From NCBI GenBank assembly GCA_000442015.1, contig KE561265.1:1-64000 (forward strand): 64,000 nucleotides of DNA, written 5' to 3'. The translations under genes and the position numbers were made by a program. Of this stretch, positions 8,482-11,400 are shown piece after piece. Under the pieces are notes generated by a model. The model was not told the DNA's origin. It did no database searches and saw only the letters and a list, made by a program, of their open reading frames with translations. The stretch comes from Rozella allomycis CSF55. Lineage: Eukaryota. Every line of letters begins with the position of its first letter. Position 1 is the stretch's first letter.

Positions 8482-11400
8482 TTAATTATGAATTTTCAGA
8501 GATCTATCATAACTCTTTGTGGCATTTCTGTCAACATGATCCAAACCCAAATGGTCATTGACTCCAAATTCAACATTGTATAAAACTTCATCTTGGTTGA
8601 TAAAGAAATAATAGATTACCAGGGTTGAGATATTGAATGGAACCAAAAGTTATTCTAGCCAATTTAATTCTAGTTAAATCTTTTTCTGAAATATTTAATC
8701 TTTTCCCAATTCTTTCTTTAATTTGAGAACAGGGTTCATTTGGAAAGATTGGGAATTTAAAAGGGATTCCATGCATCTTTGAAGTGTCTTTATTGAAATG
8801 TTCCACAGAGACTAATTTAGCATTTGGAAGAGATTCATCAAGTGGAATTTCATGAGCATAAATTGTAGAGTGAGTAGAAAATAAAGAAACGGGATCATTT
8901 GGTTTAAATTCTCTTAAAATTCTACAATTAAAAGTATCGTAAATTCTTGGATTTTTGAAATCTAAATTTAAATCTTTAATTAATGAATTTTTAGAAACAA
9001 GAAATTTCTGGATTGAAGATTCTTTTAAATTTTCATCTAAAAGAATAATTTGAAATGAAATTTTAGATTCCAATTCCATTAGAGAAATATTCAACTTTTC
9101 ATAGAATAAATAATTTAAACCAGAAGAATTATCAACAGAAATCATTTCATTTAAACATAAATTCTTTCTTCTTGAAATTACTTTGAAATTTTTATAAAAT
9201 GGATCAAATTGATGAAATAAAATTCTTGTTGGATCGTGGCTTAGTGCAGCCCCTACTTTTTCAGAAACCTTAAATTAATATAACTGAAAAAGGAAATACC
9301 AAATCAAAAGAAAATTTTCTAGAAAGTTCGATTGAAATATCATTTTGATTATCTAATAAATCTTTTTGTTTTAGAATGACGAAAACTTTGTTTACAAGAT
9401 AATCAAAATGATGTGGGACAGTTAATTGCTTCAAGGGATCTAATTCACTTTGTTTGTGGAGATCAAAAGATAATTCTTTTTGAAAGATTAAAATATCACC
9501 AGTTGTTAATTCATGAGACTGAATTGTTCCCTTCAATGCTTTCTGTTCAATAAATGTTGGTTTAATTTCCTTTTGAATTAAAAGATTAAAAATACTTCAT
9601 AGACTCTAACAGGGATAGTCTCATCCAAGCCAATTTGTTGTTTGACTTGCAAAATAACATTTTCCATTTTATCAGAAAGTTTAAAAACAAAGCTACCAAC
9701 AAAATTTAATTTCTTTTCAACTGGATCATAAAACTTGACAAACAACAGCACATCATCTTTTTAAGTGTTAGAGTGAAGATTACCTAAATATAAAATCACA
9801 TAACATCTATTTACCTACATTTAAAGTCACATAACATCTACTTACCTATTGATAATTCTCTTTCGCCTTCTTTAATGTCTTCTTCAAGATACAAAAGAAT
9901 TTCATTTTTCCCAACTTGAGATAAAGTTTGATTAAAATCTGTTATGCATGAATCTGGTCTAAACGTGTTATTTTGTCTCTTGCAAAACAACCAAAGTCTA
10001 AAATTAGAATTGAAATTATAAATATTTTGGAAATGATCTATTATTTGAAAAAAATTAAAATTTTTGTTAAATCTAATTGGTGGCTTGGTTGAGAATAGAT
10101 CTGAAGAAATTTTTTCATTTAGATCTTTTTTTGTAATAAAATAAACATTTAATGAATTTAAAATTTCTTCTTTTTCTTTTCTCTTTTCCAATTCCAATTT
10201 CTTTTCATTTTCAAACAATTCCAACAATTTCAATGGAATATCTTTATTTGTTATTGGCTTCAATATTTCCATTCGTTGTGAATCTTTAATATAAACCAAC
10301 ATGTACGCATTCGTTATCTTTTTAATCTTTCTATTTTTATTATTAAATTCTCCACCAAAGTTTTCATCCAATGCTTTATTAAATAAACAAAACAAATTTA
10401 CCTTCTTCTGTTGAAACTTTAATTACTCTATCATCATCAAATTTAAACCATTCATTTTCTATTGTTGGTCTAATATAAGCCATGTAATGACCGCCATTCA
10501 CATCCCCTGAATGAACTAGAACCCCATGCAAATGATACATTTCATCCTCTGTTTCTTCATTCTTAAATTCCTTCAAATCAATCTCAAGTGGAAATTCATG
10601 TCTATCATTAATCTTAACCATCGCATCTCTTTCAAAATCATACTCAAATCTCTTCAATTGCAAATGAAGCACCGGCGGAAACTCCATAAACACAACCCCC
10701 TTCTTTGCATCTTGCAATCCATGTCCCTCTGCCATGTACTTATTCTCTCCATTCAACATCTCAACTTTAATATAATCCTTAAACGATTCCTCCAAATTCT
10801 TCATCCCCTTCACATTCAGTTGGATATCATAAAACTTTTCTTCTCTGCTAGACTCATAATTCACATTCACACACTTTATAAAACTCTTCATCTTTCCCAC
10901 AAACAACTTTTCTATCAACCCCTCAACCGGTGTCTTCTATTTCTGAAATTTACTAAATAGATTTACCTTGATTTTCTCTTCCAAACAATCTTGCAACACT
11001 CTATTAAACTCTTGGACATCATGCTGCATAAATGAATCCATCGTATCCCATCCAAACGATCGCGTCAAATCCTTCGTTCCAACTGCCCTGTCGCTGTTCT
11101 GCAAATTATAAAACACTCTCTGCAACGACAACGGAACACTCTTCTCTTCAACCTCTGTAGGTATCGAATAAACAGCCCTTCTAAATGCATTCGTAAAATA
11201 CAACGATTGCAACAACGAATTCATATAACACGTCGCTCCTTGGTTCATCAATCCTACATACCCTGTCATCTTTTTAGAATCCCATCTATTTCTTCACCCA
11301 CAATCTACTTACGTGGCAAAGTCATTCCAAAGTGTCTTGTAATCATCCCGATACACAGCAACATGCACATACAAATCCACTTTATCATCCTCTACCAACT

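Follow-up and report, generated by a model that had tools for sequence, protein, structure and literature searches.

An 89-nt intervening sequence in a USP7-type gene of Rozella allomycis reads as three end-to-end mini-introns, two of them apparent tandem copies

How is an intervening sequence of 89 nt removed from a gene whose seven other introns, in spliced alignment, measure 26-31 nt? The question is raised by a USP7-type ubiquitin hydrolase gene on contig KE561265.1 of Rozella allomycis CSF55 (assembly GCA_000442015.1), of which we analyzed positions 1 to 64,000 (the window). The 89 nt in question occupy 9757-9845 on the minus strand of this window. We propose that they are probably three complete spliceosomal mini-introns of 31, 31 and 27 nt, joined head to tail without intervening exons; the first two units would have arisen by tandem duplication, and all three would be removed recursively across zero-length exons. 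Intron multiplication and the limits on intron length are long-standing questions for which few examples have been caught in the act.

Results

The host gene and the removal of the 89 nt

On its protein matches and domains, the host gene is a USP7/HAUSP-type ubiquitin hydrolase. The best database match of the exon upstream of the 89-nt stretch is P0001, a 1053-aa 'cysteine proteinase [Rozella allomycis CSF55]' (E = 2.9e-107), the second-best protein match having 35% identity. In spliced alignment, 1045 of the 1053 residues of P0001 are identical in the window once eight intervening sequences, of 26, 27, 30, 28, 89, 26, 31 and 28 nt, are taken out; the window protein and the deposited Rozella allomycis CSF55 protein differ at 8 of 1053 residues. 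P0001 can be aligned with fungal and nematode homologues, and its precomputed Pfam domains are PF00443, PF12436 and PF14533, which we take to be the UCH catalytic domain and the USP7 C-terminal domains. A first-pass annotation of the window had already named the gene USP7, and the three domains agree with that label.

The coding region, its exons at the site and the proposed units are as follows.

8482..11928, minus strand: USP7-type ubiquitin hydrolase gene, coding region with eight intervening sequences (protein match and spliced alignment)
9846..10373, minus strand: upstream exon, ending ...ELSI plus G, phase 1 (protein match and spliced alignment)
9815..9845, minus strand: unit 1, putative 31-nt mini-intron GTAAGT...TAG, copy A of the duplication (sequence reading and repeat finding)
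9784..9814, minus strand: unit 2, putative 31-nt mini-intron GTAAAT...TAG, copy B, identical to unit 1 at 27/31 positions (sequence reading and repeat finding)
9757..9783, minus strand: unit 3, putative mini-intron of 27 nt, GTAATC...AAG, containing CTAAC and, at 9763-9761, an in-frame TAA (sequence reading, retention test and alignment)
9596..9756, minus strand: downstream exon, beginning AT GAT GTG (protein match and spliced alignment)

Along the minus strand the order is thus exon ...TCA ATA G / 31 nt / 31 nt / 27 nt / AT GAT GTG... exon, and every unit, like the 89 nt as a whole, has GT at its 5' end and AG at its 3' end. Tiny introns together with seemingly in-frame TAA and TAG codons had prompted us to consider a ciliate code (table 6), which was rejected on the 1045/1053 match to the Rozella protein under the standard code. 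Given that match, the standard code therefore applies and all 89 nt have to be removed; under the standard code, the TAA of unit 3 is therefore a true stop.

Across the site P0001 reads ...ELSIDDVLLF.... When all combinations of retained units were translated, each of the seven partial-retention forms (7/7) met a stop 2-7 codons past the junction, and the frame was open only with complete removal. Unit 1 retained alone gives a stop 2 codons past the junction, and unit 3 retained alone reads ELSIGNLHSNT*, which places the TAA at 9763-9761 in frame. Judged from the aligned reading frames, then, all 89 nt have to leave for ...ELSI to be joined to DDVLLF....

Units 1 and 2 are near-identical tandem copies

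Repeat finding returned two 31-nt copies at a spacing of 31 with 87% identity (27/31), and Tandem Repeats Finder (TRF) reported a repeat of period 31 and 2.2 copies at 9780-9848 (89% matches, score 110). The mismatches between unit 1 and unit 2 lie at unit positions 5, 20, 25 and 28. Alignment of the two interiors scored 18, a value reached by none of 2000 shuffles of their own composition (0/2000), and 561 pairings of other window mini-introns scored 9 at most. Unit 3 was not similar to either unit in the alignment.

A pattern search placed the same 7-nt motif at three junctions.

9842..9848, minus strand: TAGGTAA at the exon/unit-1 junction, the first of three 7-nt direct repeats with 31-nt spacing
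9811..9817, minus strand: TAGGTAA at the unit-1/unit-2 junction, where AG/GT would serve as acceptor and donor
9780..9786, minus strand: TAGGTAA at the unit-2/unit-3 junction

The pattern TAGGTAA-N24-TAGGTAA has two matches, at 9780-9817 and 9811-9848, with 0 expected from shuffles. The repeat extends 7 nt past the two units, which leaves the register of the duplicated segment uncertain by that length. Since TAGGTAA stands at all three junctions, the ancestor before the duplication would already have been a two-unit array of 31+27 nt. In any register, this earlier state is ...TAG/GTAA-24 nt-TAG/GTAA..., a 31-nt intron adjoining a 27-nt unit and flanked by the 7-nt direct repeat.

We hypothesize that the 31-nt intron of this older 31+27 array was copied in tandem to give units 1 and 2. 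The likely route would be slippage or unequal exchange between the flanking TAGGTAA repeats, the outcome of which is exactly the present sequence, and the copies would later have diverged at 4/31 positions, away from the splice sites. Such a mechanism fits what is seen at the locus. The 4/31 differences indicate that the duplication would not be recent.

In the first-pass annotation, units identical at 27/31 positions had been taken for a whole-intron duplication, possibly through AG/GT microhomology, in which both copies kept their splice sites while differing internally and were followed by an unrelated 27-nt unit with an in-frame TAA. The repeat finding and TRF reproduce the 27/31 identity; the period of 31, which equals a full GT..AG unit of a size usual in this genome, and the 7-nt TAGGTAA at three junctions support the proposed route; a GTAA 5' end and a TAG 3' end are present in both copies; and the description of the third unit is confirmed by the alignment and the retention test.

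In the 64-kb window, no further copy of the 31-nt unit was found within 3 mismatches, the query itself being the only match. The metagenome contigs scanned contained no exact match to a 29-nt pattern spanning the exon/unit-1 junction. A protein search of metagenome contigs returned one 48%-identical relative, which covers residues 137-412 only and stops short of the orthologous site; its contig has 29.5% G+C, and tiny introns are not evident in it.

Further end-to-end arrays in the window

We then looked in the window for long candidate intervening sequences divisible into GT..AG units and read the sequence of those found. Strict array scans missed some true arrays through their coding-score and flank cut-offs, so the four arrays in the window, the USP7 array included, are a minimum. 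The other three are:

47266..47348, plus strand: putative array 1 of a KIF4/21-like kinesin gene, 28+28+27 nt (junction aligned with the conserved G-[IV]-[IV]-P-R-A block in 8 homologues)
47912..47965, plus strand: putative array 2 of the same KIF4/21-like gene, 26+28 nt (junction contiguous and identical in 8/8 aligned homologues)
12387..12441, plus strand: putative array of an EFL1/EF2-like GTPase gene, 29+26 nt (sequence reading; junction EQEKG/ITMKSS)

In the EFL1-like gene, positions 1-53 of the Pfam GTP_EFTU profile fall in exon 1 and positions 69-109 in exon 3, the 21-residue exon 2 being too short to score, and every partial-retention form of the 29+26 array contains a stop. The third unit of the 47266-47348 array could stay in frame without a stop in the retention test, so that two or three units may be present there. 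The reading of the USP7 stretch as a triple intron, put forward in the first-pass annotation, gains independent weight from these three arrays, which lie in two other genes at conserved protein motifs.

Taken together, the USP7, kinesin and EFL1-like genes have 17 single introns, all of 26-31 nt, and four long stretches (54, 55, 83 and 89 nt). Each of the latter (4/4) tiles exactly into mini-intron units, and no intervening sequence of 32-53 nt was found. Seven USP7 introns and one kinesin intron among the 17 were checked against protein, the others being solutions from the joining of open reading frames (ORFs).

Two tests bear on whether such tiling could be fortuitous. In the first, the interior of each stretch was shuffled 200000 times, and a shuffle counted only if GTA..AG units of 24-33 nt filled it exactly. 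Per 200000 shuffles, tiling appeared 1109 times for the 58-nt pre-duplication USP7 stretch, 142 times for the 83-nt kinesin stretch (6158 times for its first 56 nt) and 6449 times for the 54-nt kinesin stretch. The pattern GTAA-N18-27-AGGTAA-N18-27-AG likewise has 5 occurrences in the window where 0.65 were expected, with 5 reached in 0/100 shuffles; four of them fall within arrays, and the remaining one combines an exon end with a normal intron.

The second test compared donors. GTAA is present at 5/6 internal donors of the four arrays and at 24/34 real donors, against 1/24 interior GTs of single introns. For internal donors versus interior GTs, the binomial test gives P = 1.6e-4; without the copied donor, P = 1.1e-3. 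The internal donors resemble working donors, and this is our chief reason for taking the units to be, now or until recently, separate introns and not the chance interior of a long intron.

When unit interiors were aligned and compared with shuffles, no traces of duplication were found in the 83-nt kinesin and EFL1-like arrays, and the 54-nt kinesin pair gave a weak hint of similarity, with a score reached by 41/2000 shuffles. By these alignment scores, clear similarity between units is left in the USP7 pair only.

Two further stretches are array candidates. One, at 356-412, could be a two-unit chain (27+30) with GTTAG donors, its first unit being a multiple of three without a stop that may be coding; the other is at 21743-21789. 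In the 5' part of the kinesin gene (46000-50000) the coding strand is unusually G-rich, with a GC skew of 0.32-0.44 in 2-kb windows, and the kinesin intron units are G-rich as well, introns elsewhere in the window being AT-rich.

Intron length in the window

Intron length was surveyed in two scans. In the first, GTA..AG segments that connect a pair of open frames, each 50 codons or longer, were collected across the window; the result was noisy, with a background of up to 9 candidates per length, and we used only its length peak, at 26-29 nt with 13, 16, 7 and 8 candidates. A stricter scan covered 129 neighbouring ORF pairs and gave exactly one GTA..AG solution of 15-45 nt in 39 of them, several in 33 and none in 57. 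The 39 uniquely solved introns comprise one of 22 nt, one of 24, 11 of 26, nine of 27, four of 28, four of 29, three of 30, two of 31, one of 41, two of 43 and one of 44 nt. Hence 33/39 measure 26-31 nt (mode 26-27), two are shorter (22 and 24 nt) and four are longer (41-44 nt). The donor consensus in the window is GTA followed by A in 69% of cases, and the acceptor is [AT]AG.

The intron sizes of the window are Paramecium-like. The longest non-chain introns solved, at 22116-22156 (41 nt) and 17458-17500 (43 nt), are AT-rich single introns that look genuine and do not tile into smaller units. The ORF-join solutions also include very small exons, one of 11 nt (24833-24843) between introns 24805-24832 and 24844-24871 and one of 46 nt (13241-13286) between introns 13213-13240 and 13287-13312.

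Published work describes two Rozella introns as 'short (~30 nt)' (PMC6349667) and gives the intron density of Rozella as 2.5 introns per kb (PMC8476143). No description of the intron-length distribution of Rozella was found in the literature searched, which excluded the 2013 Rozella genome paper (James et al.) and all supplementary material.

Discussion

Weighing the three-unit reading

Several points weigh against reading the 89 nt as three mini-introns. The protein used to join the exons, P0001, is itself a gene prediction, and the splice sites of unit 2, being inherited from the copied unit, do not count as independent evidence. The 39 introns yielded no clear branch-site consensus; by eye, candidate TGAC, TGAT and CTAAC stretches are present in the units. 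The four uniquely solved introns of 41-44 nt make the size limit less tight than 31 nt, and the count of arrays rests on one 64-kb window. Loss of the 89 nt in one step or in three gives identical mature mRNA.

The last of these points also favours the alternative that survives best, which is one ordinary 89-nt intron spliced in a single step from GTAAGT at 9845 to AAG at 9757, using CTAAC, with a 31-nt tandem duplication inside it and the internal AG/GT never used. Its outer sites are good, with CTAAC 10 nt from the 3' end, the database gene model has the stretch as one intron, and the mature mRNA would be the same as under the three-unit model. The single introns of 41-44 nt show that some length is tolerated. 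Nevertheless, a one-step intron leaves unexplained why 4/4 long stretches, in three genes, are exact chains of normal-sized units. Exact tiling is rare in shuffles, and the GTAA consensus at 5/6 internal donors stands against 1/24 interior GTs. We regard one-step splicing as unlikely on this evidence, while taking it seriously.

A second alternative is that the genome holds one 31-nt intron here and that the assembly wrote two alleles, or overlapping contig ends, in succession. Such errors appear to exist nearby. Six of the 12 single Ns of the window (12108, 14308, 30175, 40597, 42533 and 59904) stand exactly between tandem near-identical copies, with periods of 23, 30, 98, 26, 23 and 17, respectively, and 86-96% identity. 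Dropping one copy at 42533, 59904 and 30175 fuses the flanking ORFs from 529 to 688, from 1005 to 1228 and from 135 to 178 codons. From their layout, these N-joined duplicates look like false ones, made of unmerged contig ends or alleles, and the genes they interrupt are probably intact in the organism. The overlap of their identities with the 27/31 (87%) of the USP7 pair is a further point against the three-unit reading, and a duplicated intron would be invisible to reading-frame checks.

In all six false duplicates, nonetheless, the joint is marked by an N, and no N lies within 2 kb of the USP7 repeat; the earlier remark that no N is nearby holds, the nearest of the 12 single Ns being at 4284 and 12108. 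The unit boundaries fall on splice sites, and the arrays of dissimilar units elsewhere indicate that abutting mini-introns exist here without duplication. In the whole-window TRF table, the other N-free two-copy repeat of period at least 17 is an in-frame coding repeat at 49314-49390 only. That repeat is a 30-nt tandem of 2.6 copies with 82% matches in the kinesin tail, encoding a VERVEGD-like decapeptide. An assembly artefact at the USP7 site is, in our view, very improbable.

Least credible of all is a different exon structure, in which introns of 35 nt (9841-9807) and 27 nt (9783-9757) enclose a 23-nt micro-exon (9806-9784). This parse is in frame and stop-free, has parallels in the small exons of the window (11 nt, 46 nt) and would add nine residues (GKCYVILYL) at a loop of variable length in homologues. 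But it would use GTAGAT as donor although a consensus GTAAGT is available 4 nt upstream, turn a diverged copy of the neighbouring intron into a coding micro-exon, add a hydrophobic peptide where the loops of homologues are polar and proline-rich, and require residues that are absent from the database protein.

Proposed splicing of the array

Under the three-unit reading, each internal AG/GTAA boundary would act as acceptor for the preceding unit and as donor for the following one. Taking out any unit would recreate an exon/donor, acceptor/exon or acceptor/donor junction, a valid substrate for the next round, and any order of removal would end at ...ATA G/AT GAT..., which amounts to recursive splicing across zero-length exons. 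Unit-by-unit splicing is what we infer from the layout of the sites, and likewise that each copy behaves as a separate intron. Two spliceosomes hardly fit at once on neighbouring units this short, and serial removal would be expected from spliceosome size. Incompletely spliced forms, all with an early stop, would face nonsense-mediated decay if Rozella has that pathway.

A broader reading can be offered more tentatively, and we hold it to be possible and somewhat doubtful. The Rozella spliceosome may have an upper limit of ~45 nt, such that every longer intervening sequence would be a chain of mini-introns removed unit by unit and grown by whole-intron tandem duplication at AG/GTAA microhomologies, the USP7 pair being the only one in the window young enough to show the duplication. 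If this is true, a few percent of the intron sites in the genome would be chains (4/21 intervening sequences in the three genes).

Comparison with known systems

The closest parallel for the proposed mode of splicing is in Drosophila, where zero-nucleotide-exon recursive splicing takes place at AG/GT ratchet points in Ubx and at about 200 sites (10.1101/006163; PMC10809524). As there, an acceptor and a donor are juxtaposed inside the intervening sequence (TAG/GTAA at 9817-9811 and 9786-9780), a donor would be regenerated after removal of the upstream part, and no exon would be kept. Unlike Drosophila, in which very long introns are subdivided, the Rozella units measure 26-31 nt and the whole is below 90 nt; and whereas the Drosophila intermediates have been seen in RNA data, those of the Rozella array are predicted.

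For the origin of the pair, the nearest parallel is the model in which expansion of dual-specific splice sites (DSS), with an AGGT able to serve as donor or acceptor in every repeat unit, creates introns in human tandem repeats, a polymorphism in VCX3A adding an intron copy (Duan et al. 2024; PMC10809524). Units 1 and 2 similarly form a 2 x 31 nt repeat with AG/GT at each boundary, unit 3 lying outside the repeat. As in VCX3A, an extra whole-intron copy stands beside the original, and because growth of a DSS repeat adds a spliceable unit, the insertion would be tolerated. The human cases differ in that they involve coding tandem-repeat genes and larger units. In Rozella, what is repeated is a whole intron in a tiny-intron genome, and the repetition lies within the intervening sequence, the flanking USP7 exons being non-repetitive. 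In contrast to the polymorphic VCX3A copy, the Rozella copies would be old (4/31 differences) and, as far as can be told, are not polymorphic.

Stwintrons are fungal complexes of more than one U2-type intron that are spliced consecutively, and small duplications of donor elements have been proposed at their origin (Ag et al. 2020; PMC7138796). The Rozella array resembles them as a fungal intervening sequence made of several introns. In a stwintron a splice element of the external intron (donor, branch or acceptor) is split by the internal intron, and the order of removal is thereby fixed; the Rozella units instead abut, all donors and acceptors are intact before splicing, and any order would work. 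No unit interrupts a splice element of another, and the array is thus not a stwintron sensu stricto.

Tandem duplication of genomic sequence across AGGT has also led to intron gain (Hellsten et al. 2011; PMC3265369), as in the potato RdRp case (PMC4974935). There too a tandem copy supplies a second AG/GT, and the added copy can be spliced out. In those cases exon sequence was duplicated to give a first intron, whereas in Rozella an existing intron would have been copied to give a new unit at the same position. Finally, fungal introner-like elements are introns that multiply as sequence-similar copies (PMC3609843, PMC4457414), and this likeness is shared by the Rozella unit. Introner-like elements are dispersed, longer and structured; we rejected this class for the 31-nt unit, which lacks another copy within 3 mismatches in the window.

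Both the proposed splicing mode and the proposed origin are thus already known in kind, as zero-nucleotide recursive splicing and as dual-specific AG/GT repeat expansion. The literature searched, which did not include the 2013 Rozella genome paper or any supplementary material, yielded no account of mini-intron chains, either in Rozella or elsewhere among tiny-intron organisms.

Implications

A single human polymorphism has been called the sole evolutionary intermediate known for de novo spliceosomal intron creation (Duan et al. 2024; PMC10809524). The USP7 pair, as read here, shows one way in which an intron may multiply, namely by being copied beside itself with the splice signals kept in both copies, and the recurrence of chains within one 64-kb window raises the interest of the case. 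For annotation, the consequence is that in gene models of this lineage each such chain is entered as one long intron. If unit-by-unit splicing is true, Rozella would use recursive splicing for a purpose opposite to that in flies, as a way of coping with a spliceosome tuned to short introns, and the limit on intron length would become directly testable.

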